Shown in pieces: positions 1 to 64,000 of a DNA stretch of 64,000 bases; position 1 is the first letter of the stretch, and each line of letters starts with the position of its first letter. Both the position numbers and the translations under genes were made by a program. The DNA lies in sequence record OL739525.1. The stretch is one strand, 5' to 3'. This stretch comes from Escherichia phage dw-ec. The notes below the pieces were generated by a model. It saw only the letters and a program-made list of their open reading frames with translations. It searched no databases and was not told the DNA's origin.

Positions 1-1
1 T

Positions 2-229
2 TCCCGTGAAGAGTTGATGACACAAGCTAGTGCAAAAATTCGCTCTTTACAAGAAACAGCGGTAGCACTTATAACACCTTTACAGTATGCTAAAGATTTA
101 GAAATGGCTACTGAAGACGAATTAGCTTATCTTAAAAATCTTCAAGTTTATGTAGTTAAACTAAATCGTGTTCCGCTTCAAAAAGACTATCCTTACGCTA
201 TAGATTGGCCTACATTACCGACAGAATAA
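2..229 (+). CDS. C-terminal fragment of a tail fibre assembly chaperone-like protein (5' end outside window)
   Basis: Reading frame is open to the left window edge; C-terminus ...VVKLNRVPLQKDYPYAIDWPTLPTE resembles the conserved C-terminal motif of caudoviral tail fibre assembly proteins; tentative. Confidence 0.4.
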   Translation, partial: SREELMTQASAKIRSLQETAVALITPLQYAKDLEMATEDELAYLKNLQVYVVKLNRVPLQKDYPYAIDWPTLPTE

Positions 230-238
230 GGGATCACT

Positions 239-574
239 ATGGAATTTCAAGAAGCATGGGGACTTGCAAAGGATGCAATAATCCCTTTAATCGGAGTCAT
301 CTGGTTCTTTTTCAAACAAAAAATGGATAAATTCGGCTCTGATCTTGAGGAAATGGAGGAGAAAAGTCGAGAGCTAGAGAAGAAGTTGGTCTTTGTTGAA
401 TCAACTTACGCAACTAAAGCCGAACTTACCCAGATGCTAAATCAAATTAACTCTACATTAATGGCAAATAACAACACCCTTGAGCAAAAAATTGAAAAGA
501 TTATGGACCTCAAGAATGCGACTATCCAAATGATGCTAGATGACATAGTTAAACGTACACAGAATAAGGGGTAA
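239..574 (+). CDS. hypothetical membrane-anchored coiled-coil protein
   Basis: ATG with AAGGG RBS; N-terminal hydrophobic helix (IIPLIGVIWFFF) followed by charged heptad-like sequence. Confidence 0.5.
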   Translation: MEFQEAWGLAKDAIIPLIGVIWFFFKQKMDKFGSDLEEMEEKSRELEKKLVFVESTYATKAELTQMLNQINSTLMANNNTLEQKIEKIMDLKNATIQMMLDDIVKRTQNKG

Positions 575-577
575 TTA

Positions 578-3500
578 ATGGCAACATTCCCAACATATCC
601 AGCAACGTCTCTCGAACAGGGCGTAGACCTGGTTATTTTCTCATCTAACCAACTCCATGATGTTATTAATGGAAGTGCTACAGAGAGTATTGAAACAGAA
701 TCAGGGTTGATACCAACCCTGAGAAAAGCCCTTGTTGACAACTTTTTCTTTAAAAGCCCATTGGATTGGGCGCAAGGCACAAACGAAACAGTTTTTAACC
801 AACTTCGTTATTTCCAGAATGGAGTATTGAGCGGTTATTACTATGCTCCTAACGCTACATTGGTTAACCCAATCCCTATGCAAGGGACTCCAGTAGGAGA
901 TAACAACTGGGTATTGTGGGGACTGAAAACAGAACAATTAGCAACAGAAGTCACCCCGTGGGTATACTCTGGTGCAACTGGTTATGAAACAGTAATTAGT
1001 CCTCCTTACATCTTTGATAGTGCTATTGTTACGATCAATGGTGTTATTCAGGTTCTGGGGGAAGCTTTCCGTATAGAAGACAGTAAGATCATCTTATCTG
1101 AACCTTTGGGACACGATCCTGCAACAGGACTGCCAAACAAGCTTTTTGCTTATATTGGTAAAATCGTAGCTTCAGCAGATACAGATCCTAATCTAGAGAA
1201 CCGTCTTGTTAGTTTAGAAACAAAAACGGAAGAACTAACAGAAAGCATGGATAAAGTCCCTCTGCAAACTATTGCTCGTAAGTATGGTTTGTTAGATGAT
1301 GAGGTGGCTTACGCAACAGCAGGTCAATCGTTAACAGGGATTAAAGCTCTGTACGATCCGGTAGCACAGTCTTCCTACACATTACCTCCTAACATCACAG
1401 GAACTTTAACATCCTTATCTGTTTCTGGAGTAATGACTTATTCTGGAGGATCTGTAGACCTTTCTGCACTGGCTGTTGAGCGTGGACAGTTTGTTCATTT
1501 GCCTACAAGCTTTGGTAATAACGTAACTCTGACAGCTAAAAATCAGACGATTGGACGTGGTGCTGGTCGTTATCGTTGGGCTGGAAGTTTACCAAAAAGT
1601 ATTTTGGCCTCTGATACATTGGAGACAAGCGGAGGATTAGGTCCAAATGCATGGGTTCTGACTAATACAGAAGGACTGTTAACCCCTCGTGGTGGAACAT
1701 ACAACGATCTATTCGATGTTGTCTACTTGTCAGAATTTGCTAACAATACAACTACCTATACCACACCAGAAGCAGCTTTCCAGGCGGCACTGTTAGCAGC
1801 AAAAGCTTCGAAAAGCAAGATTCTCGATGCTTACGGTTGCGACATGACTTTCACGACAAGCTCTTTTGATATTCAAGATATCACTTTGCGTGGTGGTGTG
1901 TTCCGTGGTCAACGCGACTATCGTGTGCAGAATGCTACAGTAGAAGGCACAACTTTCCGTAACTCTCGTGTTATGTATTGGGGTGGTGCTGTGCGCATGT
2001 TCGATTGTTTGTGGGACGGTGCTCCTCGCGCAGGTCAAGTTGGTAGCTTGGTATTCCAAGGCAACCCAATATCAGGTACTTTTGAAATTGATAATTGTAC
2101 TTTTAAAAACGGGTTATATGGTATTCTTCAACAAGGAACAGGGGAACCAGTAACACGCGGTGTCTTCCGTAACCTTACCTTCATGGACATGCAAGGTGAT
2201 GCAATAGAACTGAACGTCATCAATAAACATTATGACGATGGTTGTGTGATTGAGAATATTTACCTGTCTAATATCGATGGGACTAACGCTCCTATTCCTC
2301 TGTCCAACTGGGGTATCGGTATCGGTGTAGCTGGTAAAGGACCATATGGTTACGGAATCCCTGATGATCAATATTGTAAGAACATTACAATTCGTAACGT
2401 TTTTGCAAAACGTTGTCGTCAGATTGTCCACGTAGAAGTTGGTCGTAATATCTCTATCGAAAACATTCATGGCGATCCAGATCAAACCGTATCTGTTGGG
2501 ACAGGTTTGGCAACTGGCGCAGTTGTAATGTATGGAAGTAAAGACTTTACGATTGATGGTGTTTATGGAGAGCCTAAAACAGACGGTAGCACACTTGCAA
2601 GTAATATCCGTATGATTTACTTGGAGTGGGGAACTAACGCAGTTCTGGATGAAGAGGGTAATCCGGTAGTTCCGGCACAGGGCAGACCTTCAAACCCATG
2701 CTTTAACTATTCTGTTCGTAACGTTCACACCAAAACTGGGCGTGTTTTTGCGGGAGTTTCCGCTGGGCCAGGTTATGAAAACAGAGTTAGCTTTGAAAAT
2801 ATTCGTTGCGCTGCCTTGCAGTTGTTCGGTATAGCTTCTTGGCTTTCAATGTCTAACATCACCTGTAATATCTTCGATTGTGTTGGTCAACCTGAATCTG
2901 GTCCAGGGACATTTTATGATGGATTCTTCCGTAGAGAAAAATCTGTTCTTGAAATGGTTAACGTAAACTGTTACCCAGATGGCAAGACGATGGTTACTGG
3001 TCGTCCACAGTGGAGCCGTTGCCGTTACTCGGATATTCATCGTGTCAACTGTAATGTTGAAGCTAATATGTATACCAATATCGCAGGTGGTATTGGAGCT
3101 ATTGTAGGGACAACGGGCAAAGTTTATTACTTAGAGCCTAATCCTAGTCGAAACATTGATGGAATGCATTTCCCAACAGGGAAAGAGTTTGACAAAGGGG
3201 ATATGATAGTCAAGGCGGATAATACGTTCTTCCTTGTAACAACAAGTGGGGCATATATTCCAGATATCCCAGCTTTCGGTATTCGAGCTACACAGGCAGG
3301 AGATACCTTCCTGACACAGAACTTGACTCCTAACGGGACAGCAACAAATGCTTCTTGGTTGTATCATTACCCTCTGTCAGCAGGGACACGTATCCGTATT
3401 CCTGGCGCTGGTGTAGGTGGAGCAGATTTGGACACAGTTATTACTCGTGCACCTTATCAAGATAATGATACGTGGACTAACCCAGTTAAAATAGACATTG

Positions 3501-3631
3501 CAGATCCAATTGTAACGCCTACAAGTGCTGGAGTTAGAATTAAAACCATACCTAATGATTCCAGTAATGTTTCTGTAGGTAATACTGCGGTTATTCGCCC
3601 AACGCCAGTAGTAGATGTGCCAACAACCTAA
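578..3631 (+). CDS. tail spike / tail fibre protein with predicted right-handed beta-helix (possible depolymerase)
   Basis: 1017 aa ORF, ATG with AAGGGG RBS; long central region of Gly/Asn/Thr/Val-rich repeats typical of parallel beta-helix tailspikes; terminator hairpin immediately downstream. Confidence 0.75.
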   Translation: MATFPTYPATSLEQGVDLVIFSSNQLHDVINGSATESIETESGLIPTLRKALVDNFFFKSPLDWAQGTNETVFNQLRYFQNGVLSGYYYAPNATLVNPIPMQGTPVGDNNWVLWGLKTEQLATEVTPWVYSGATGYETVISPPYIFDSAIVTINGVIQVLGEAFRIEDSKIILSEPLGHDPATGLPNKLFAYIGKIVASADTDPNLENRLVSLETKTEELTESMDKVPLQTIARKYGLLDDEVAYATAGQSLTGIKALYDPVAQSSYTLPPNITGTLTSLSVSGVMTYSGGSVDLSALAVERGQFVHLPTSFGNNVTLTAKNQTIGRGAGRYRWAGSLPKSILASDTLETSGGLGPNAWVLTNTEGLLTPRGGTYNDLFDVVYLSEFANNTTTYTTPEAAFQAALLAAKASKSKILDAYGCDMTFTTSSFDIQDITLRGGVFRGQRDYRVQNATVEGTTFRNSRVMYWGGAVRMFDCLWDGAPRAGQVGSLVFQGNPISGTFEIDNCTFKNGLYGILQQGTGEPVTRGVFRNLTFMDMQGDAIELNVINKHYDDGCVIENIYLSNIDGTNAPIPLSNWGIGIGVAGKGPYGYGIPDDQYCKNITIRNVFAKRCRQIVHVEVGRNISIENIHGDPDQTVSVGTGLATGAVVMYGSKDFTIDGVYGEPKTDGSTLASNIRMIYLEWGTNAVLDEEGNPVVPAQGRPSNPCFNYSVRNVHTKTGRVFAGVSAGPGYENRVSFENIRCAALQLFGIASWLSMSNITCNIFDCVGQPESGPGTFYDGFFRREKSVLEMVNVNCYPDGKTMVTGRPQWSRCRYSDIHRVNCNVEANMYTNIAGGIGAIVGTTGKVYYLEPNPSRNIDGMHFPTGKEFDKGDMIVKADNTFFLVTTSGAYIPDIPAFGIRATQAGDTFLTQNLTPNGTATNASWLYHYPLSAGTRIRIPGAGVGGADLDTVITRAPYQDNDTWTNPVKIDIADPIVTPTSAGVRIKTIPNDSSNVSVGNTAVIRPTPVVDVPTT

Positions 3632-3637
3632 TGGAAT

Positions 3638-3660
3638 AGAGGGGGATTCCCCCTCTTCTT
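3638..3660 (+). terminator. rho-independent terminator
   Basis: GAGGGGG-att-CCCCCTC stem-loop followed by T-rich run, directly after stop of 578..3631. Confidence 0.6.
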
Positions 3661-3692
3661 CCAATAGAATGGTCTAATGATAGGAGAGATAA

Positions 3693-5717
3693 ATGAATTT
3701 AACAAGACCTAATAGTGCGATAGCCGATCTGGTAGAAGCTACTTATCGAAAACGTCGCAGCTTTGAGGCAGGTTTTACATTACGTAATTCCCGTGAAGTT
3801 TTGCTGTTAGCAGCAGAAGGGAATTATTACCAATGGAAAGGAACTTTTCCTAAAGTTGTTCCAGCAAACTCTACGCCAGCCACCACAGGTGGTATTTCTT
3901 CCCTTGCATGGCAAAGTGTTGGGACCGCTGATGATATAGCAATTATCAATGCCAAGTTTACGGCAATGCAGCAACAGATTGATGATCTGTCGGAAACAAT
4001 ACCTGAAGCTGGTAAATCGGCTTATCAGATCGCACTTGATAATGGTTTTGTTGGAACAGAAGCACAATGGCTTGCTTCTTTGAAAGGGGATACTGGTGCT
4101 CAACTTAATATTAAAGGATCATTAGCAAACACTAGTGAACTACCATCCACAGGTAACGTTGCAGGGGATGGTTATATCGTAGGTGATGTAATCTACGCTT
4201 GGGACGGTTCTGTTTGGAAACTTATTTCTTCTCTTGGGCCAGAAGGTAAATCAGCTTACGAGGTATGGTTGGCAGATGGTAATACAGGATCTGTTTATGA
4301 TTTTCTTACCTCTATAAAAGGTGATAAAGGTGATGTTGGTCCTACAGGGCCACAGGGAGCACCTGGTGTTAACGCCAACGGTTTTGATTATCGTGGGGAT
4401 TTGCCTTCTACAAGTAACTTACCACAACCAAACTCTGAAAACGTAAGTCAAGCTTATTCTATCAATGGTAATCTTTATGTCTCTAATGGGACAGCTTGGG
4501 TCAACATGGGTAATATTGTTGGTCCTCAAGGTCCACAAGGTGAGGCAGGTAAAGACGGTCTTGATGGAACAGATGGAGATGAAGGGAAATCTGCATATCA
4601 AAGTTGGCTGGATGCTGGTAATGAAGGGACAGAAGTAGATTTTATTGCCTCACTTAAAGGTCCAAAAGGAGACAAAGGTGATCAAGGAGAGCGAGGTCCA
4701 CAAGGTGAACTAGGTCCACAAGGACCAGTGGGTGCAACAGGATCAGGCTTAGATATTATCGGGGTTCTGAACAGTGAAGCTGAACTTCCTCCTACCGGAG
4801 AAGTAGGTGATGCATATAAAATTAATAATGATTTATATGTTTGGGTTCAAGATGCTACGGAATGGATGAATGTTGGCAGTCTTGGAGGAACATCAATTAC
4901 AGCTAAAGGTCATGTTCCGAACAGTGAAGCTCTCCCTGTTTATAATAACTATGGCGATGCCTACTTAACTGAAGACACTAGTAATCTTTACATCTATACC
5001 TACGATCAAGACACCAATTCCGCATCTTTTGTTGACATGGGAAGTATTAAAGGCGACAAAGGTGAAAAAGGGGATAAAGGAGATAAGGGTGATCCTGGAA
5101 CAAACGGAACCAACGGTACTGATGGGACCAACGGTAAGGACGGCGCACAGTGGTTTGTAGCAACAACTAATCCAGTTGCAGGAGACGGTGTTATCAATGA
5201 TTACGCCTTCAATACTACCACTGGAGCAGTGTTTAAGAAAACAGATTCTTCTACGTGGACGCTTATAGGCACTCTTCCTAGTATACCAGAAGCCCCTCAA
5301 GACGGCTTGACGTATGGTCGGTCTGATGGAAACTGGATCGAAATATCAGGATCAGATCCTACGGAAGCTATAACACCAACTAGAGTTACAGCAGGTTTCA
5401 TGGAACTTGAAACAACTGCTGCCAACTCTGGAGCATCTTGGACTCCTTCTGGAACTTCCAATATGTATGTTGTTACAGTAACTGATGCTCTGACAGTTGG
5501 AGCATGGCCTGGTGTCACTGGCTCTACAAAACCTAAAGCGTTTTCAGCAATGATTTATTTGATTCAAGATACAACGGGACACACGGTTACACTAGATGCG
5601 TCTTATGGAGCACTAAATGATACAGAAATAGCAACTGCTGCTAACGCAGTAACAATTTTGCAATTAACGTATCCTGGTGTGGGTGATATCGTGGACATGG
5701 TTGTTGTAACACGATAA
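3693..5717 (+). CDS. collagen-like tail fibre protein
   Basis: 674 aa; several Gly-X-Y runs (GPQGPQGEAGKDGLDGTDG, KGDKGEKGDKGDKGDPGTNGTNGTDG); three copies of a GKSAYxxWLxxG..GT..xFxxSLKG motif and four ~30-aa LPxxGxxGDAYxIxxDLYVW repeats. Confidence 0.8.
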   Translation: MNLTRPNSAIADLVEATYRKRRSFEAGFTLRNSREVLLLAAEGNYYQWKGTFPKVVPANSTPATTGGISSLAWQSVGTADDIAIINAKFTAMQQQIDDLSETIPEAGKSAYQIALDNGFVGTEAQWLASLKGDTGAQLNIKGSLANTSELPSTGNVAGDGYIVGDVIYAWDGSVWKLISSLGPEGKSAYEVWLADGNTGSVYDFLTSIKGDKGDVGPTGPQGAPGVNANGFDYRGDLPSTSNLPQPNSENVSQAYSINGNLYVSNGTAWVNMGNIVGPQGPQGEAGKDGLDGTDGDEGKSAYQSWLDAGNEGTEVDFIASLKGPKGDKGDQGERGPQGELGPQGPVGATGSGLDIIGVLNSEAELPPTGEVGDAYKINNDLYVWVQDATEWMNVGSLGGTSITAKGHVPNSEALPVYNNYGDAYLTEDTSNLYIYTYDQDTNSASFVDMGSIKGDKGEKGDKGDKGDPGTNGTNGTDGTNGKDGAQWFVATTNPVAGDGVINDYAFNTTTGAVFKKTDSSTWTLIGTLPSIPEAPQDGLTYGRSDGNWIEISGSDPTEAITPTRVTAGFMELETTAANSGASWTPSGTSNMYVVTVTDALTVGAWPGVTGSTKPKAFSAMIYLIQDTTGHTVTLDASYGALNDTEIATAANAVTILQLTYPGVGDIVDMVVVTR

Positions 5718-5721
5718 CAGA

Positions 5722-5746
5722 AGCCCCGAAAGGGGCTTTCTTTTTA
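5722..5746 (+). terminator. rho-independent terminator
   Basis: GCCCC-gaaa-GGGGC stem-loop (GNRA loop) followed by TTTCTTTTT. Confidence 0.7.
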
Positions 5747-5758
5747 TGGAGGGTTTAA

Positions 5759-8431
5759 ATGTTTCCAATTCCAATATTTACTATTATGACCAGCACTGGT
5801 GTCGTTCCTCTGCCAGCGGGTATTGTTAAAAAAGTAATCACTTTAGATTACCCAGATAATGCTGGTAATTCTAACAGCAGTTTAGCAATTTTGCTTAATG
5901 ATGGTAGATTGTTTACTCAAGGCGCAAACCTTTTTGGTGAGATTGCAGATGGAACTCGTAGTGCACGATTCAATAATTTCCACTTAGCTTCTACTGTAGT
6001 AGCGGATGTGTTTACCGCAGATCGTTGTTTTGTTATTAAAACTAACAGCGGGGGATGGCAATATTCAGGATTGACAGCAGGGTTGGTAGGATCTATAGCA
6101 GCAGGTGGTACGGATGCATGTGTAACTACTTGGACCAGCTTTCCATCTGTAATAACAGGGACTATCTCTTTAGCCAATCTTAAAGAGGTTAAAGGAGGGT
6201 ATAACAATACTCTTTGGTTAATGAATAGCGGTGTTCTTTATGGATCGGGTCAAAACACAGTAGGCAGTTTAGGTGCAAGCACTACTAACGAAGTTTCTAC
6301 TCCCCGTCAGATAACAAGTTCAGCAGTTGCTTTTGATGCAGGTTATAACCAATGCTCTTATGTCAACAATGCGGGAACCTTGCGTGTTTGTGGAGCTAGT
6401 AAAGGTTTAGCAGGTAATAATAACACAACAACCGCTTTTGTCAATGCCACGATATCCACTACTGAAACAGTGTATGTCAAAGATTACATCAATACAGTTT
6501 CCCAGACAATAGTTGTAGGAGATACCTCCGGTGGCGCGGGTACAGTAAACTACTTATATGTTAGATCTAATACAGAAACAACCTACACTAAACTGGACAC
6601 CTTTGCAGCAGGTTTCTCAACATGGAAATTTCCACCAAGCCGCCACTCTTTTTTCGTTGGGATCAATAATTCCTTGTGGGCTATTGGTAAGAACTACACT
6701 GCAAACTTAGGTTTGGGATATGATTCTGCGAGCGGAGATCCACTCCAAGTGGGAAAACCAGTTAAACCTGAAGGAGTGGGTTCCTGGGATATAAACAAGC
6801 TCACAAGCGTTCATACGTTGAATATGGATATTACTAACCAATTAGGTTATCAAGGAACCTTTTTCGTTTATAACGGGGATATGTATTATTCCGGTATTTG
6901 GAAAGATGGGAAAGCCTCGTATCTGTTCAATAGTGGTCTAAACTATAATAAATTCACACCAATAGCAAGCTCCGTGATTACGGGGGATGTTCTGGCAACT
7001 GGCTTAACTACAGATTCTTTAGGAATTTGTATTGTAGGTGGAACTAAACAGTTGACACATTCTGTTAGCCCAGAAGGAGGTAAACTTTTCAATATTAAAT
7101 ACACTTCTTCTGCCCCTGCAAACATGACAATATCATCTACTGGTTTAATGACTTTCCATGCAGAAGGTGGTTTTGATGCAGGTATGACAGCCTTAAACGC
7201 TGAAGGAACAACTTTATCAGATACCTCTGGAGGATATGCTTCAACATTGAGTGTTTACACCCCTAGCTTATCTGCGATGGATGTAGGAACAACACAAACA
7301 ATGGTAGCAGAAATAACGCCAACAGGAGCAGCAAGCTTACCTGGTATGGTTGTTGAGTATACAACTACAGATCCTAATGTTGCTACAGTAGATCCTACAA
7401 CTGGTGTAATAACTGGTGTTGGTGATGGTGGTTGTAGAATTGGTTGCACAGCTACATATCAAGGTGTTGTTACCGCTTCTGATAGTTCTTATTTAACGGT
7501 GAACGCTGTTGCGGGAAAGGAGTTAGCTCCATCTCCGAGTAGTAGTTTAACGGTTCTAAACGGATATTTCAACCACTCGGCAGATGGGGCAATTACGTTC
7601 CCAATTTTATCGGGTACTGTCACACCAGCTAACTTTGTAGTTAAGGTGGATGACGTTGTAATACCTTCAAATAAAGTAATATTTAGAAATAAAGCTTTCT
7701 CTACAGTGGATAGTTATCCAGCAGGAGAATATAGACTGGCTATTGAATTTGCAAGTGCTTCAGTAGTGAATAGTGTTGATGTGTCTATGGAAGCAAATCC
7801 AGATCTTTTAGAATTATGGGGCGGCAACAGAATTGGTTATTCTACAAGCCCAGCCTCACAATTCTTAAAAGGTTGTGCTAACTTAAGACGAATAACTTCT
7901 GATTGTTTTAGTAACACATCTTACACCGGAACATCTATAAGTGGTATCTTCTCTGGCTGTACAAGTTTGACAGCTATCCCTGAAGGATTATTCAGTGATG
8001 CTTTATTTCCTTCAATGACAACAATGTCAAGCACGTTTGAAGGTTGTACATCTTTAACATCTATTCCTTCAGATTTATTTAAAAATCTATCAAAAGTTAC
8101 AAGATATTCTTACACCTTTAAAGATTGCACCTCTCTTGCAGAAGTTCCAGCAGGAATGTTTGATAATATTCCAACGAAAGTGACCTCTTTAACAGCTACA
8201 TTCCAAGGTTGTTTAGCACTTACAGATTTTAATAAAATCTTTAATGACAACCCAGGGTTAACTGTTTGTGGTAAACGTGGAGCATTATCTTCTTTCTTTA
8301 GTGGATGCACAAATCTTACAGGAACAGGAACAACATTAACAAATACATTAGGCGGAGTAGCTAATAGTTACCTATTCAGGTATTGCACAAAACTTTCTGA
8401 TTATAACAATATTCCTTCGGGTTATAAATAA
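5759..8431 (+). CDS. tail fibre / adhesin with RCC1-like repeats, Big_2-like Ig domain and BspA-type leucine-rich repeats
   Basis: 890 aa; N-terminal G.N..G.LG repeats (RCC1-like); central segment resembling bacterial Ig-like group 2 domain (TQTMVAEITPTGAASLPGMVVEYTTTDPNVATVDPTTGVITGVGDGG); C-terminal repeats F.GCTSLT.IP..LF typical of LRR_5. Confidence 0.75.
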   Translation: MFPIPIFTIMTSTGVVPLPAGIVKKVITLDYPDNAGNSNSSLAILLNDGRLFTQGANLFGEIADGTRSARFNNFHLASTVVADVFTADRCFVIKTNSGGWQYSGLTAGLVGSIAAGGTDACVTTWTSFPSVITGTISLANLKEVKGGYNNTLWLMNSGVLYGSGQNTVGSLGASTTNEVSTPRQITSSAVAFDAGYNQCSYVNNAGTLRVCGASKGLAGNNNTTTAFVNATISTTETVYVKDYINTVSQTIVVGDTSGGAGTVNYLYVRSNTETTYTKLDTFAAGFSTWKFPPSRHSFFVGINNSLWAIGKNYTANLGLGYDSASGDPLQVGKPVKPEGVGSWDINKLTSVHTLNMDITNQLGYQGTFFVYNGDMYYSGIWKDGKASYLFNSGLNYNKFTPIASSVITGDVLATGLTTDSLGICIVGGTKQLTHSVSPEGGKLFNIKYTSSAPANMTISSTGLMTFHAEGGFDAGMTALNAEGTTLSDTSGGYASTLSVYTPSLSAMDVGTTQTMVAEITPTGAASLPGMVVEYTTTDPNVATVDPTTGVITGVGDGGCRIGCTATYQGVVTASDSSYLTVNAVAGKELAPSPSSSLTVLNGYFNHSADGAITFPILSGTVTPANFVVKVDDVVIPSNKVIFRNKAFSTVDSYPAGEYRLAIEFASASVVNSVDVSMEANPDLLELWGGNRIGYSTSPASQFLKGCANLRRITSDCFSNTSYTGTSISGIFSGCTSLTAIPEGLFSDALFPSMTTMSSTFEGCTSLTSIPSDLFKNLSKVTRYSYTFKDCTSLAEVPAGMFDNIPTKVTSLTATFQGCLALTDFNKIFNDNPGLTVCGKRGALSSFFSGCTNLTGTGTTLTNTLGGVANSYLFRYCTKLSDYNNIPSGYK

Positions 8432-8433
8432 GA

Positions 8434-8460
8434 AAAGGAGCCATTTGGCTCCTTTCTTTT
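8434..8460 (+). terminator. rho-independent terminator (possibly bidirectional)
   Basis: GGAGCC-attt-GGCTCC stem-loop followed by TTTCTTTT after stop of 5759..8431. Confidence 0.7.
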
Positions 8461-8497
8461 ATAAAGTTAACTCTTCCCATGTTCTTGTGCCGCTTCT

Positions 8498-8520
8498 GGG
8501 GGGCCCCCCCCCCCCCCCCC
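8498..8520. repeat. G6-C17 homopolymer tract
   Basis: GGGGGG followed by 17 consecutive C in the convergent intergenic gap between late and minus-strand blocks. Confidence 0.9.
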
Positions 8521-8535
8521 TATAGATCAATAAGA

Positions 8536-9423
8536 TCAGAATGGAATATCATCATCGAAGTCCATTGGAGGTTCTTCTTGATTACTTGGAGTTGGTTCTG
8601 GTTGTGGTTCAGGTTTTTTAACTTCTTTCTTCTCTTCTTTCTTAGGTTGTTCTGCGGAACCACGAATGGCAGCAGCAACTTTATCAGACAAAGCTAGAAC
8701 TTTACGAGCAGAGTCAATCAAATCTTCTACAGATACAGTCTTAATGGTATGGTCTTTACAAGCATTGAGGATAGCGTGACCAACAGATGCCCCAAGATCA
8801 TAATCATTAATGTCAACGCCACGAGATTCAGCAATTTCCGATTTCAGCGTGACAGTTGCAGATTGAACAACCCCAGCGATATCGAAAGCATCACCTTTAA
8901 CACCATTACGAATCAGTTCCAGTGCACCATTTACTGCGTGACCAGTTTCCAGACCTACAGTATCACGTTTTTTATAGGACTGCTTAGGAGCAGCATCGTT
9001 GGAACCTTTATTGCCAGAAGATTTGTTAGACTTCTGAACACCATCGGTAGACAATACTGTAATACGAGATTTTTTAGTATTGTAGTAAGTTTTACCGCCT
9101 TTATTATCAACGCGATCAATATCAATACTTACTTCTACACCTTTTTCAATAGTGATCCAATTATCACCTTCTTTGACTTGCAGGTTTTCATAACCTTCTT
9201 TCAGTTCAATGTCACCAAGAGAAATCCAAACACCTTTCTCATCTGGTTTAGCACCTTTCTCTTTCAGAACAAGAGAAGCTCGGTGAGTTGAAACAATCGT
9301 TTTTCCTTCCCAATGAAAAGTTTTAGGTTCAGCGAATTTATCCAGTTTAACGTAGTCTACGATACCAGTTGCATAAGTTACGGTTTTGCCTTTACGATCA
9401 GTTTCAGTATTAATTACGGACAT
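8536..9423 (-). CDS. putative ssDNA-binding protein carrying a host SSB-type C-terminal tip
   Basis: 295 aa, ATG with GAGGAG RBS; Lys/Pro/Glu-rich linker then C-terminal PPMDFDDDIPF, the same nine-residue tip as E. coli SSB; N-terminal domain not obviously E. coli-SSB-like. Confidence 0.55.
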   Translation of the reverse strand: MSVINTETDRKGKTVTYATGIVDYVKLDKFAEPKTFHWEGKTIVSTHRASLVLKEKGAKPDEKGVWISLGDIELKEGYENLQVKEGDNWITIEKGVEVSIDIDRVDNKGGKTYYNTKKSRITVLSTDGVQKSNKSSGNKGSNDAAPKQSYKKRDTVGLETGHAVNGALELIRNGVKGDAFDIAGVVQSATVTLKSEIAESRGVDINDYDLGASVGHAILNACKDHTIKTVSVEDLIDSARKVLALSDKVAAAIRGSAEQPKKEEKKEVKKPEPQPEPTPSNQEEPPMDFDDDIPF

Positions 9424-9877: not shown

Positions 9878-10471
9878 TTACCAAGGAATATCCTCTTCTT
9901 CCAATCTGGTATCTACTTGAGGTGGACGTGGAACCTTAACCTCTTTCACAAAACGAAGATATGGGAAACGTGTAGCAATTTTAATAACGTGTTTGGCATC
10001 TTCTCTAACGTCTTTGTGCAAGAAGCAGATCCCTGTTTCCAAGGTTGTTTCAAAATCTTTAGAATAATAACAATCCTTCCCATCAAATGCAGCCTGGCAG
10101 ATGGACAGATCGAACTCATTTAGAAAGGTTGTCATTACGCTTGGTTCCATAATCATAAGGTTGCAAAGCTGACCATCACGTTCAAACTCAAAAACGTGTT
10201 TAAGACCAGTAACACCTTCATAATTGTCAGAAGCCTCTTTGTTTCCTAGTTTACGAATATTGGTTCCCATTAAAGCAGATGCAATTAATCCTTGTATTTG
10301 TTCTTCAGTCCGATGTGCAGGAAGGGATGTATAGAAATCAAGATCACGTCCAGCAATATCAAGAATACGCCAATCACGAACAGCACCGCCAGCCAAGACA
10401 GAATTAGGATCAGCGATCTTTAATACGGTAAGAATTTCTTTGGCAATATTGATTTGTTTTGATTTAGTCAT
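9878..10471 (-). CDS. nucleotidyltransferase-fold protein (pol-beta superfamily head domain-like) with acidic IPW C-terminus
   Basis: GGAVRDWRILDIAGRDLDFYT resembles the GGAVRD...DxD head motif of CCA-adding / poly(A) polymerase class II NTases; C-terminus EEEDIPW resembles SSB tip. Confidence 0.45.
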   Translation of the reverse strand: MTKSKQINIAKEILTVLKIADPNSVLAGGAVRDWRILDIAGRDLDFYTSLPAHRTEEQIQGLIASALMGTNIRKLGNKEASDNYEGVTGLKHVFEFERDGQLCNLMIMEPSVMTTFLNEFDLSICQAAFDGKDCYYSKDFETTLETGICFLHKDVREDAKHVIKIATRFPYLRFVKEVKVPRPPQVDTRLEEEDIPW

Positions 10472-44093: not shown

Positions 44094-44585
44094 ATGGCTT
44101 ACCCTGATTACATTGACGAACGTGCTATGGGTTTCTTCCGTAACTTCTTGGTTGGTCGTTCTCACGGAGACAACGGTTCCAGTTATAAAACAAGCTGGGA
44201 TAGTCAGTGTGGCGCTAAGGCTACCAAAACTTTGAAAATGCCAGGTCGTCCGTTGTGCGCGTATTGTGGTAATGAAGCTTTAGCTCTTCAACCTGGTATT
44301 GAACATGGTGATTATACTATTAAAGGTTACACTTGTGTCTGCAAAGGTGCAATGGACGAGGCGGATTGGGTGAAAGAAAAAGCAGAGATGGAGGAACGTC
44401 ATAAACGAGAAGCTTATGAAATGGAAAAACGTATGCCTGTTCCAGATTTGCAAGTTAAGAAAGATATTGTTGCGAAAATGATGGAAAAAGTCCAGAAAGC
44501 AGAGACGGAAGAAGACCTAAATCGTGCACTGGAAAACTTACGTAATTTTAAAGAAGAAAAAGAGTTGCGTGAGATTATGTGGTAA
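44094..44585 (+). CDS. hypothetical Cys-rich protein
   Basis: 163 aa; AAGGAGAA RBS; C..C...C.C cluster. Confidence 0.6.
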   Translation: MAYPDYIDERAMGFFRNFLVGRSHGDNGSSYKTSWDSQCGAKATKTLKMPGRPLCAYCGNEALALQPGIEHGDYTIKGYTCVCKGAMDEADWVKEKAEMEERHKREAYEMEKRMPVPDLQVKKDIVAKMMEKVQKAETEEDLNRALENLRNFKEEKELREIMW

Positions 44586-44622
44586 GGTATACTATTTCCA
44601 TCAATTAAGAGAGGAGAACCAA

Positions 44623-47975: not shown

Positions 47976-49202
47976 GTGAGACGTAAATCAATAGAAGAAT
48001 ATATGGAAGAGTGCGCACCGATAGCGACTGAGAGGGGGATCATCATCCTCGGCACGTATGGAGAGGATAAGGGAAGTAAGACTAAAATGATCCTACGGGG
48101 AAGAGATTGCAATCATGAGTGGAATACCACGACTTTTAACCATTTTAAAAGGGGTAGTGGTTGTCCTGTTTGTGCAAAAGAAATGGAAAGTAGAGGTAAA
48201 GCTAAAAAGAAAAACTTAGAAACCTGTCTTATAGAGTGTCAACCTTTAGCACAGGAAAGAGATATTGAGATTATTGGGGTTGTGAAACCTTTTAAAGGTG
48301 TACGGACTAAAATGATCAACCGTTGTAAAGTTTGTTATCATGAATGGAATACTTGCAGTATTGCCAATTTCAAGAGAGGTTCGGGATGCCCGAAATGCAA
48401 AGCTGAGAAAATAGGAGAATTAGGCAAGTGTGCGGTTATCCCAGACGATCAGCACATACAAGATTTCATGAATACTGGCGCTTTCCAACCAGGAACCATC
48501 TTCATCAATACAGGGGAACGTACTGGAAAGAGCGACAGTATTTGGTGTATAAAATGTCCTATTTGCTCATACGACGAATATGTACAAGCTGGAGTATGTG
48601 ATGGTAAGTTTTATTCTACAAGGGGCAGTCTTAAAAACGGGAGTCTCGCTTGTCGTTGTTCTACACGTTATGTGTTTAGCGATCAGCAGTTAACATACCG
48701 CATGAGAAAGGAGTTGCAGAAAAAAGATTTGATTTTTATCGAATGGGTAGGCAAACCGTCTGTAAGATTAGGTAAGTTTAAATATGGATGTAAGAAACAT
48801 GGGGTACAAATAGGACGTGCCAGTAGTTTGTTAAATCATGGCACTGGTTGTCCGCAATGTGCTAACCAGACACAACAACAATGTTACATTAACCACATTC
48901 ATGATGAACAAGGTATTCTCTGTGCTTTGAAATTTGGAATTGCCAATAATAGTGATCGCCGTATCAAAGAACAAAATAGTCGTAATGTGTTTACTATGAA
49001 ACAGGTCCAAGTGTGGCACTTCCCTACTGCGAAGCAGTGCAAAGATGCAGAGAAGCGTTGTAAGCGTGTCCTTCACACGGAAGCAGTGAGCAAATATGCT
49101 ATGCCAGATGGCTACACAGAGACAGTGGAGTTATCTTGCATGGCATCAATACAAAACATTTATAAACTTTATGGTGGAACATTACAGGAGGAAACATGTT
49201 AG
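47976..49202 (+). CDS. zinc-ribbon repeat protein, possible GIY-YIG-like nuclease
   Basis: 408 aa, GTG start; repeated C.HEWNT...F.RGSGCP.C modules; C-terminal GILCALKFGIANNSDRRIKEQN weakly GIY-YIG-like. Confidence 0.5.
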   Translation: MRRKSIEEYMEECAPIATERGIIILGTYGEDKGSKTKMILRGRDCNHEWNTTTFNHFKRGSGCPVCAKEMESRGKAKKKNLETCLIECQPLAQERDIEIIGVVKPFKGVRTKMINRCKVCYHEWNTCSIANFKRGSGCPKCKAEKIGELGKCAVIPDDQHIQDFMNTGAFQPGTIFINTGERTGKSDSIWCIKCPICSYDEYVQAGVCDGKFYSTRGSLKNGSLACRCSTRYVFSDQQLTYRMRKELQKKDLIFIEWVGKPSVRLGKFKYGCKKHGVQIGRASSLLNHGTGCPQCANQTQQQCYINHIHDEQGILCALKFGIANNSDRRIKEQNSRNVFTMKQVQVWHFPTAKQCKDAEKRCKRVLHTEAVSKYAMPDGYTETVELSCMASIQNIYKLYGGTLQEETC

Positions 49203-50850: not shown

Positions 50851-51098
50851 CGCGCAGGGGCGGTGTTTGTCTCGCGCTCCCGTGTCCCCTCGCCATGTAA
50901 TAAGAATAACAGATCCAGCCAGGAAAGCAAGCGATTATTTTATCTTTACATTTCTTTACAAATATATAGCGCCCAGCCTACCGGCGATCAACCTTCCAAC
51001 CAGCGCCCTGGTATGTTAGCCCCGCCTTTACGCCGTGGGGTGGCGCTTCCTCTTCTGTATGTAAAACAGTATAAGCCCGATCCCTGGGCTTGTCAAGA

Positions 51099-51365
51099 TT
51101 ATTTTTTGTTTTCTTGCCAGGATAGGACACCTAACCAAAAATACATATCGCCCCGCGCCCCTGGTGGTATCTTGCTTTCCCCGCCGCCACTGCAAGCCCA
51201 TAGATAACCATTTGCGAACGTATCAAAATGATCTATCTCTTCCACCTTATGATCGCCCAGGTTGAGAACGGTTTCAACCTTTAAGCCCGTTGCGCTTGCT
51301 ACCTGGTGCACCGTGCCGCCTTGCCAGCCCAATGAGTGCATAAGGTGTAATGTAGTAGTTGTCAT
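51099..51365 (-). CDS. hypothetical protein in GC-rich island
   Basis: 88 aa ORF with protein-like composition; surrounding 50860..51560 noticeably GC-richer than the rest of the window. Confidence 0.4.
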   Translation of the reverse strand: MTTTTLHLMHSLGWQGGTVHQVASATGLKVETVLNLGDHKVEEIDHFDTFANGYLWACSGGGESKIPPGARGDMYFWLGVLSWQENKK

Positions 51366-51474
51366 GGTGTCGCCCTTTCTTTGTTGTGCGCCCTGGTTGG
51401 CGCGGTAGAAAGATGATAGCCTTTTCCTTTATATATAGCAAGCAAAAAGAAAATAAAAAAGATTGAAAAAGTGG

Positions 51475-51503: not shown

Positions 51504-51638
51504 TCATCTTGTCGAGGGGGGCGCGGCACAACGACAATAAAAAACAGGAGGGCGCAATGTAGGACGGGCAAAGGTGAGGATCTCCATAATCCACCGTCAA
51601 CCAACAAAAAACATCATTCATCACCTGGAGTTAAAATC

Positions 51639-53808: not shown

Positions 53809-53988
53809 ATGGCTATCATTGCAAAAACTGAGATTATAGGTTTAGATTCGATCCTCCTGGCTTATGAGGAAACTTTAAAAATGTATATAGTGACCTATGG
53901 TGATTATGTGCGTGAATACGAATACATTGATCTTGCTTTCGAATGTTACATTCGCCAGGTCAATAAAGCCTATAACGATTATCGTTAA
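53809..53988 (+). CDS. hypothetical early protein (59 aa)
   Basis: Not in ORF track; starts MAI like neighbouring cassette genes; hand-translated. Confidence 0.45.
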   Translation: MAIIAKTEIIGLDSILLAYEETLKMYIVTYGDYVREYEYIDLAFECYIRQVNKAYNDYR

Positions 53989-54007
53989 AAGTTTTAGTCT
54001 TATACTA

Positions 54008-54060
54008 TTGACAATGAGTGATAGTATAAGCATAATAACTTTTATCGGGAATACTTCCCA
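54008..54060 (+). promoter_or_regulatory. promoter-leader cassette P6
   Basis: TTGACA-17-CATAAT, hairpin GGGAA-tac-TTCCC. Confidence 0.6.
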
Positions 54061-54085
54061 CTAACCAAAAAGAGAGAGTGACACC

Positions 54086-60288: not shown

Positions 60289-60308
60289 ACGTCAGAAAGG
60301 AAAAGATT

Positions 60309-60545
60309 ATGAGTATTGCAACAGTATTAAACGCCGTTAAAACCGCTGAATCATCCGGCTTACATGTTGAGCTTATAGATCAACCAGGTGGCGATCTCCT
60401 GGTCCAGGTTTACCCGCCGAAAGTAGGGGATGATTATTATTGGTGCTATTCCGATACGTTCGAACAAGTAGACACGAAAGCGATCACGGCTTTTATTTTA
60501 AAAGCTATTGAAGAAAATAATTTTCATTATAACATCAATCAATAA
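60309..60545 (+). CDS. hypothetical early protein
   Basis: 78 aa ORF. Confidence 0.5.
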   Translation: MSIATVLNAVKTAESSGLHVELIDQPGGDLLVQVYPPKVGDDYYWCYSDTFEQVDTKAITAFILKAIEENNFHYNINQ

Positions 60546-60554
60546 ACCATAAGC

Positions 60555-61197: not shown

Positions 61198-61254
61198 TTG
61201 ACACCGGATCACGCTTACATTATTATTTATCACGTAGGGCGGGAATGTTTCCCA
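61198..61254 (+). promoter_or_regulatory. promoter-leader cassette P22
   Basis: TTGACA-17-TATTAT, hairpin GGGAA-tgt-TTCCC. Confidence 0.6.
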
Positions 61255-61274
61255 CCTGATTTAGGAGTCATATC

Positions 61275-61508
61275 ATGATCGAACAAATTAAAAGCACTAC
61301 ACCAAATGTTAACGGTAATGTTTCTCACTTTATCGGGGATAATGAAAGAGGTACACCGTACGCCGCCGTAACCGTTCAACCTAACGGGGATTATTGGTTT
61401 ACCGTGTACGGATCTTACTCTTTTGGACGTTCGGCACATGATAAGATCTTGCAAGTGGTTAAGCCTACTGGGAAGAATATCACAGCAGAAAAATTTTATA
61501 AAAAATAA
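61275..61508 (+). CDS. hypothetical early protein
   Basis: 77 aa ORF. Confidence 0.5.
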   Translation: MIEQIKSTTPNVNGNVSHFIGDNERGTPYAAVTVQPNGDYWFTVYGSYSFGRSAHDKILQVVKPTGKNITAEKFYKK

Positions 61509-61569
61509 CTTGCTTTATAGCTCCTGTTAACTTATAGTTATTGCGTAGGGCGAGCAATACAGCAAGCCC
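61509..61569 (+). promoter_or_regulatory. promoter-leader cassette P23 (divergent variant)
   Basis: TTGCTT, TATAGT, then TTGCGTAGGGCGAGCAATACAGCAAGCCC with alternative pairing. Confidence 0.45.
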
Positions 61570-63206: not shown

Positions 63207-63590
63207 ACACTTATTGCGCTGGCTTATTATTAGCATTATATGTAATTACCAAGATCATAACATTAGCGCAATAACAATAATCATTGTAATGGTTACAATA
63301 TGAAATCATTAGCAGGATGAATAATTGCACGTAGCAACATGAGCGAATAGCGACAGGTTGCATAGTGTGCACATAATAGAATAAAAGTCAATAATTTTGG
63401 GGGCGAAATGTTACCGCCACGGGCGGGAATGTTGAGCACTAAGAAAAGAGATAAACCTTAATCATGGGGGCGTAAATATCCGCAGGATTGCCAACGGCGA
63501 TCCGGTAGGATGTTGAGCATCTTCTCTTAAACGTAAATAAAATCAGAAAATTCTTGATTTATTCTGGTTTTTATGTTAATAAACGTTTAA

Positions 63591-63610
63591 ATAATAATCA
63601 TTCTCATATG
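63591..63610. promoter_or_regulatory. Fur-box-like element
   Basis: ATAATAATCATTCTCATATG; shares ATAATCATTCTCAT core with 50826..50839. Confidence 0.45.
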
Positions 63611-63766
63611 AATAATAGTCCGTCTGTCATGAGCGGCATTAGTTGACATTGTTCCGTCATATGATGAAGTTGCCAAACCATTGATAAATAAGCGTTTGTG
63701 TGATTTATAATCAAGTGGCCCACCTTGTCGCTATGTTGGCATAAGCCTTGCATAAGTCATTGAATA

Positions 63767-63789
63767 CGAATGATAATTATTCTCATTCG
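63767..63789. promoter_or_regulatory. Fur-box-like palindromic element
   Basis: CGAATGA-taattattc-TCATTCG. Confidence 0.45.
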
Positions 63790-63895
63790 CATGATATTTG
63801 GGAATTGTCGCTGCGTGGACCTGACGGCCCGAAAATTCGCGTTAGGTTAAACACCCAAGCAGACGCCGCAATATCAGCACCGACAGGAAACACAA

Positions 63896-64000
63896 AGACA
63901 CCGACAACTTTCTTGTCACATGTGTACTTCGTTCAGTTTCGAATGTTCGGGTGTTTATGCAATCGTAAGCCCTACCGTGACAAGAAAGTTGTCGGTGTCT
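63896..64000. repeat. 24-bp perfect inverted repeat (arms 63896..63919 and 63977..64000) flanking a 57-nt spacer
   Basis: AGACACCGACAACTTTCTTGTCAC and its exact reverse complement; right arm touches the window edge. Confidence 0.8.

Follow-up and report, generated by a model that had tools for sequence, protein, structure and literature searches.

The phAPEC8-like phages carry a short direct terminal repeat, given as 328 bp for Schickermooser (PMC6563267), and an 'infestation' of E. coli phages by homing endonucleases has been noted (PMC8594841). From sequencing practice, poly-G read tails are documented for the two-colour NextSeq/NovaSeq chemistry (fastp, PMC6129281). The window considered here, i.e. 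the whole 64,000-nt stretch of DNA that was analysed, belongs to Phapecoctavirus (phAPEC8-like coliphages of the Stephanstirmvirinae); megablast gave 71 matching records, the closest relatives being ETEC-TG (99.5% over 25 kb) and MRostami-2023b.

The feature under study is the tract GGGGGGCCCCCCCCCCCCCCCCC at 8498-8520, which consists of G6 at 8498-8503 followed by C17 at 8504-8520, letter for letter as reported in a preliminary description made from the sequence. Its placement between the late-gene terminator and the 3' end of the minus-strand block was likewise correctly given there (the stop codons of the two flanking genes lie at 8431 and 8536), and the tract is unusual in this genome: C17 is the sole C run of six or more in the 64-kb window of 39.5% G+C, G6 recurs only once, at 51516, and the next-longest stretch of G and C alone is 13 nt. 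What the description missed is that the left neighbour of the tract is a homing-endonuclease relic, and that the tract forms the right end of a longer segment of 55 nt (8466-8520) specific to the window. As set out below, the G6-C17 tract very probably arose as a local error of assembly or consensus, at a site where an endonuclease gene is polymorphic, and does not belong to the phage chromosome. The features referred to are the following:

5759..8431, plus strand: tail protein gene, 890 aa, with RCC1-like and Big_2 domains (Pfam PF25390, PF02368, PF00415); the last gene of the plus-strand late block
8433..8456, no single strand: bidirectional intrinsic terminator hairpin with the core GGAGCCATTTGGCTCC, terminator-like on both strands, with an A-run upstream and a T-run downstream
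8466..8520, no single strand: window-specific segment of 55 nt (net +48 nt), replacing the 7 nt AACTCTT of endonuclease-free relatives
8466..~8499, minus strand: degraded 3' end of an HNH-type homing endonuclease gene, reading ...EAAQEHGKS* as against ...HHEAWHQEHGEGLNAE* in the intact gene
8479..8697, plus strand: spurious ORF, 72 aa, MFLCRFWGAPPPPPY..., with its ATG inside the insertion and the remainder antisense to the SSB-like gene
8498..8503, no single strand: G6 run, the first two G still aligning with the endonuclease allele
8504..8520, no single strand: C17 run, with no counterpart in relatives; homology to all relatives restarts at 8521 (TATAGATCAATAAG)
8536..9423, minus strand: SSB-like gene, 295 aa, with the acidic tip ...MDFDDDIPF*; the first-met gene of the minus-strand replication block
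63516..63844, plus strand: terminal-repeat homologue (97%), to which the 329-bp direct repeat of Schickermooser maps; the physical end in this genus
63845..64000, no single strand: untrimmed Oxford Nanopore technical sequence, 156 nt, directly after the terminal repeat

The tail protein, which is so annotated in ETEC-TG and Mt1B1_P17, was not on record in an exact protein look-up, and the terminator at 8433-8456, common to both convergent genes, was found from the alignments to be kept in the relatives. The gene on the other side is annotated as a single-stranded DNA-binding protein in several relatives. Neither its product nor the endonuclease gave a match in Pfam, and PHROGs gave matches for both. 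In the SSB-like protein, the SSB families match the C-terminal tail only (the last ~45 residues), and the body matches phrog_4477 (E 3e-97), a family of unknown function; the product possibly has another fold to which an SSB tail is attached. In DE16 (1995-2927 of locus L003) and Mt1B1_P17 (2426-3358 of locus L005) the SSB-like ORF is without this stop and has 15 extra codons (APIGLQYGRNFLHCF), the extension going past DDDIPF into the endonuclease 5' region, with the tip no longer C-terminal. The plus-strand ORF 8479..8697, which translates the tract as a proline run, had been called spurious, and rightly so: it starts in the insertion, is mostly antisense to the conserved SSB-like gene, and is the only ORF to contain the tract. 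It is absent from the relatives because its ATG sits in the window-specific insertion.

By megablast, each match across the junction splits in two, with record spans that differ from the query length. When ETEC-TG was aligned by blastn with the low-complexity filter off, positions 1-8465 were recovered without gaps at 99.9% and 8521-44096 at 99.2%, 8466-8520 alone being left unaligned between them in place of 7 reference nt. The junction of the relatives reads ...CTTTTATAAA-AACTCTT-TATAGATCAATAAG..., and that of the window ...CTTTTATAAA-GTT-AACTCTT-CCCATGTTCTTGTGCCGCTTCTGGGGGG-C17-TATAGATCAATAAG...; where the close relatives have ...TATAAA-AACTCTT-TATAGATC..., the window has 48 more bases. With a query of 106 nt that spans the junction, coverage stays below 80% in every phage record; 117 records match part of it, and 22 records among the matches listed cross the junction in 58 nt rather than 106. 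Over 7800-9400, ETEC-TG and MRostami-2023b are 100% identical to the window except for the segment, and the short junction is found throughout the clade, the members of which have 95.7-100% identity to the window in this interval. Likewise, all ten of the independent ENA/Logan/NCBI contigs listed with an identical SSB-like protein (a protein that occurs on many contigs) read CTTTTATAAAAACTCTT followed by TATA[A/G]ATC, i.e. the short junction, including six that differ in the tail-gene end and the terminator. Exact searches with segment-specific strings gave no match in IMG/VR, JGI metagenome contigs or GTDB genomes; four JGI metagenome matches to a shorter 19-mer sit in unrelated DNA and were set aside as chance. 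Nor was a natural endonuclease allele or relic of the window's type found in INPHARED, IMG/VR or the GTDB genomes. Because the flanks are identical to those of members of the short-junction clade, the extra 48 nt must, as judged from these alignments, be derived rather than ancestral, a state of this one sequence.

The left-hand part of the segment has a recognizable origin. In an alignment with Mt1B1_P17, 8466-~8499 agrees at 33 of the 34 bases aligned, and each of the six gaps represents a deletion on the window's side; the local alignment score with the endonuclease, a homology that covers 8466-~8499 only, is 46, whereas 500 shuffles averaged 15 and reached 25 at most. The intact endonuclease family matches phrog_2340, 'endonuclease' (E 1e-40), and, less strongly, HNH and endonuclease VII families. 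An intact minus-strand gene of this family (128-164 aa, with a variable N-terminus) is located here in Mt1B1_P17, nepoznato, AV125, phiWec188/190 and PsgM04F, DE16 has an internally deleted relic in which both gene ends are kept, and most phages (e.g. ETEC-TG) retain a 7-nt trace. The garbled version in the window, which holds no intact endonuclease ORF and in which a gappy 3' end of ~34 nt is left, makes up the fourth of the junction alleles (loci compared: window 8457-8535; L003, 1952-2050; L005, 1954-2430; L006, 1750-2200). The endonuclease gene is in this way present in some and absent from others of a set of otherwise collinear genomes. The junction of the tail gene and the SSB gene in Phapecoctavirus is, by the evidence of these alleles, a hot spot at which a free-standing HNH endonuclease gene is gained, decays and is lost.

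The relation of the segment to these alleles is uneven. In the shared columns it follows the endonuclease-free allele (TATAAA, AACTCTT), and elsewhere it departs from the endonuclease allele by deletions alone, with gaps that become denser toward the tract. Such a fine-scale mosaic would be the pattern expected from a consensus over discordant reads. A natural decay intermediate would also fit, but this is disfavoured because the extra bases are derived. The insertion measures 45-46 nt, compared with 45 nt in the endonuclease alleles between the same anchors, an agreement that may be a coincidence.

The right end of the window bears directly on how the assembly was made. The block at 63845-64000 consists, in order, of the reverse complement of the adapter/PCR primer GGTTGTTTCTGTTGGTGCTGATATTGCGGCGTCTGCTTGGGTGTTTAACCT (46/48 match), the reverse complement of barcode 01, AAGAAAGTTGTCGGTGTCTTTGTG (24/24), the head of the sequencing adapter (TGTACTTCGTTCAGTT...) followed by the barcode flank CCTACCGTGAC, and barcode 01 in forward orientation (19/19, cut by the window end); these oligonucleotides are given in PMC4678842 and PMC10513316. 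From this arrangement, the block is most readily understood as a read-end/read-start chimera that entered the consensus at the right physical end of the genome, and it presumably runs on past the end of the window. It was not found in the other phage records of the collection. Because adapter and barcode 01 are present at 63845-64000, the source can be identified as an uncleaned Nanopore PCR-barcoded assembly. Elsewhere the window is cleanly assembled, and the few indels relative to ETEC-TG (1-44 kb) were placed in intergenic spacers by coordinate mapping onto the ETEC-TG annotation. Assembly quality that is low in general was rejected on this ground, and because these indels lie between annotated genes the error at the junction is local. 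Short reads may have been used as well, to judge from genes that are free of homopolymer frameshifts.

Abutting runs of G and C were found to recur in assemblies of unrelated origin. In IMG/VR, G6C12 occurs in at least 120 unrelated contigs; among the 124 such tracts listed, 73% lie less than 200 nt from a contig end, where 7% would be expected, and 21% are internal. The control motif C12G6 was also present in at least 120 contigs, as frequent as G6C12 and also concentrated at the ends. Because of this equal frequency the order of the runs carries no information, and the notion of two 3' poly-G tails meeting, read from the order of G on the left and C on the right, was dropped. Long abutting G and C runs are still best described as a generic assembler product. 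Loci L027-L249 of IMG/VR (e.g. L071, 1047-1106, with G32C28; L078; L043) hold long runs of this kind, mostly near contig ends, and such a collection-wide artefact could contaminate repeat or terminus analyses. One internal example, G13C8 at 7258-7278 of L070 (IMGVR_UViG_3300008278_000008, a 146-kb contig), has an A-run before it and ~18 T after it; it has the layout of a strong bidirectional terminator, unlike the tract of the window, and might be real.

A mis-assembly at the junction is hence the reading that we favour: the segment is absent at this locus from near-identical independent genomes, its composition is foreign to the genome and recurrent elsewhere, and technical sequence was retained in the same assembly. 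The preliminary description had listed a sequencing or assembly artefact among its possibilities, and this part of it stands, given the absence from relatives, the junk-type motif and the Nanopore adapters; for the 'homopolymer tailing' that it named as the route, no specific evidence was obtained. The junction would have been hard to resolve if the lysate was a mixture with and without the endonuclease gene, or if the genome truly carries the endonuclease. An assembler, polisher or contig-bridging step could then have written a garbled, partial endonuclease 3' end, and G/C filler of the type seen at assembly dead ends would have closed this copy. If short reads were used for polishing, two-colour Illumina poly-G tails together with their poly-C complements would be a candidate source of the filler. 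The real sequence would most likely be either the short endonuclease-free junction or a full endonuclease gene of ~0.4-0.5 kb. Some points count against a mis-assembly. Nanopore consensus tends as a rule to shorten homopolymers and would not readily produce one of 17 nt, and outside the junction the assembly of the window is clean. Moreover, the sequence on the left is genuine phage-type sequence, with the DE16 relic at the same site, and 8466-~8499 is possibly natural.

It is unlikely that the whole segment is real, in the form of a recent insertion or a decaying endonuclease remnant restricted to this lineage, with a true G6-C17 at the deletion junction that arose by replication slippage expansion or by aberrant repair of an endonuclease-made double-strand break. 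Such an origin would account for the true homology of 8466-~8499 to the endonuclease 3' end, for the location at a hot spot of natural gain and loss, where four types of allele occur, the DE16 relic included, and for the precise joining of the flanks to conserved sequence, and it would agree with the general experience that Nanopore consensus under-calls a homopolymer rather than invents a 17-mer. However, neither the relatives nor the three large collections searched contain the segment, and with flanks that are those of the short-junction phages a de novo gain of 48 nt would be needed. We know of no phage or E. coli mechanism by which ~20 untemplated G/C bases are added. The state of the relic, endonuclease-free-like in the shared columns and with bases only missing elsewhere, is odd for recombination, and the assembly is demonstrably uncurated.

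Very unlikely is the more specific proposal that the tract is a real repair scar at a homing-endonuclease target site. Here the HNH endonuclease of a co-infecting phage would have made the break, ~34 nt of the gene 3' end would have been copied from an endonuclease-bearing donor, and the scar would have been sealed after untemplated addition of G/C, conceivably by the phage nucleotidyltransferase encoded 1.4 kb away (9878..10471). If true, this would imply a hypermutable homopolymer in a lytic coliphage.

The tract was also considered as a functional element, i.e. a phase-variable switch, a terminator or roadblock hairpin, or a G-quadruplex/i-motif, which we regard as highly improbable; the earlier suggestion of a real slippage-prone or structure-forming element is accordingly not supported. 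G6 can pair with C6 (-6.9 to -7.5 kcal/mol), and by rule of thumb the G17 of the minus strand could form a quadruplex. However, the hairpin is not better than that of shuffled sequences (z = -0.4), no T-run follows the tract, no Rfam family comes near its gathering score at the tract, and the only terminator found at the junction is the conserved one at 8433-8456. The tract lies between the two stop codons, downstream of both convergent genes and outside any real ORF or promoter. No length variants were seen in the relatives, among which there is neither conservation nor length polymorphism because the tract is simply absent from all of them.

The preliminary description had raised the tract as a possible marker of the physical genome ends, brought together during assembly; in the form considered here, circularisation of a linear genome would have done this. 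The position between convergent gene blocks would suit such a marker, as would the fact that contig-end junk often looks alike. The evidence on the true ends makes it extremely improbable. In MK373788.1 (Schickermooser) the first 329 nt are identical to the last 329 nt, and this repeat maps at 97% to 63516-63844, 55 kb from the tract. The homology to Schickermooser and ETEC-TG ends exactly at 63844, and because Nanopore adapters are ligated exactly there, this position is a real molecule end. Relatives are contiguous across 8465/8521, and in the records with true ends the junction falls well inside the sequence, at ~95 kb for Schickermooser and at 96-101 kb for ESCO5, ESCO13 and phAPEC8.

That the non-homopolymer part of the insertion comes from a sequencing adapter, either the P7 tail of Illumina or the rapid adapter of ONT, with poly-G behind it, has a negligible probability: TGCCGCTTCTG resembles P7 TGCCGTCTTCTG by eye, GCCGCTTC occurs in the ONT rapid adapter and adapters are present elsewhere in the assembly, but such an origin of TTCTTGTGCCGCTTCTG was rejected by scored alignment with shuffles, because the six adapter sets scored 12-21 against 8466-8503, within the shuffle range (19 and 21 versus maxima of 31-34, as compared with 46 versus 25 for the endonuclease), and the library at 63845-64000 is of the ligation/PCR-barcoding rather than the transposase type. 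Of the adapter sequences compared with 8466-8503, two of the ONT ones were confirmed in published oligonucleotide lists.

In combination, these results indicate that the source record probably contains at least two non-biological stretches, one of ~48 nt within 8466-8520 and one of 156 nt or more that starts at 63845. Such stretches give rise to the spurious proline-run ORF, distort comparative alignments and could mislead searches for repeats, termini or structured DNA, and the record needs trimming of the adapter/barcode block. The adapter fusion at 63844 has the benefit of pinpointing independently the right physical end of the genome, at the end of the ~329-bp terminal repeat. Almost certainly, G6-C17 is not a real feature and the underlying biology is ordinary, the endonuclease hot spot being the useful part of it.

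A number of observations were made in passing. In the right-hand part of the window, the intervals 44097-44608, 48071-48436, 51013-51387, 53817-54081, 60289-60550, 61203-61531 and 63439-63509 could not be aligned to ETEC-TG. The 44-63.5 kb region has lower identity (89-98%), many small ORFs and short GC-rich hairpin-like motifs, e.g. CGCCCCGCGCCCC at 51149 and GGGGGGCGCGGC at 51516, a pattern that points to cassettes of the early region being turned over as modules. The last interval, 63439-63509, lies immediately before the terminal repeat and resembles one more copy of a local repeat unit that contains a hairpin. Among the near-identical Phapecoctavirus genomes are MG065650.1 ('Campylobacter phage B15'), OR584014.1 ('Pseudomonas phage PsgM04F') and OP562383.1 ('Acinetobacter phage vB_AbaM_ABPW7'). 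For a coliphage genus these three host labels appear doubtful, which suggests possible contamination or misassignment.

Compared with known systems, the tract resembles the G/C junk found at contig ends: a G run abuts a C run, the composition is foreign to the genome, and relatives lack it. It differs in being internal, with correctly ordered genome on both sides. The poly-G tails of two-colour chemistry differ from the present case in that the assembly of the window is at least partly Nanopore-based. Embedded Nanopore adapters are present in this assembly in exactly the known form at 63845-64000, whereas 8466-8520 is without a match to any adapter tested. Phase-variable homopolymeric tracts, the contingency loci of bacteria and some phages, share with it a long G/C run that would be slippage-prone if real; unlike these, the tract is neither conserved nor located within or upstream of a switchable gene. 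Finally, in comparison with free-standing HNH homing endonuclease genes, the window is without an endonuclease ORF, and homing in the phages listed is itself putative, but the intergenic site is the same and 8466-~8499 is homologous to the 3' end of these genes.
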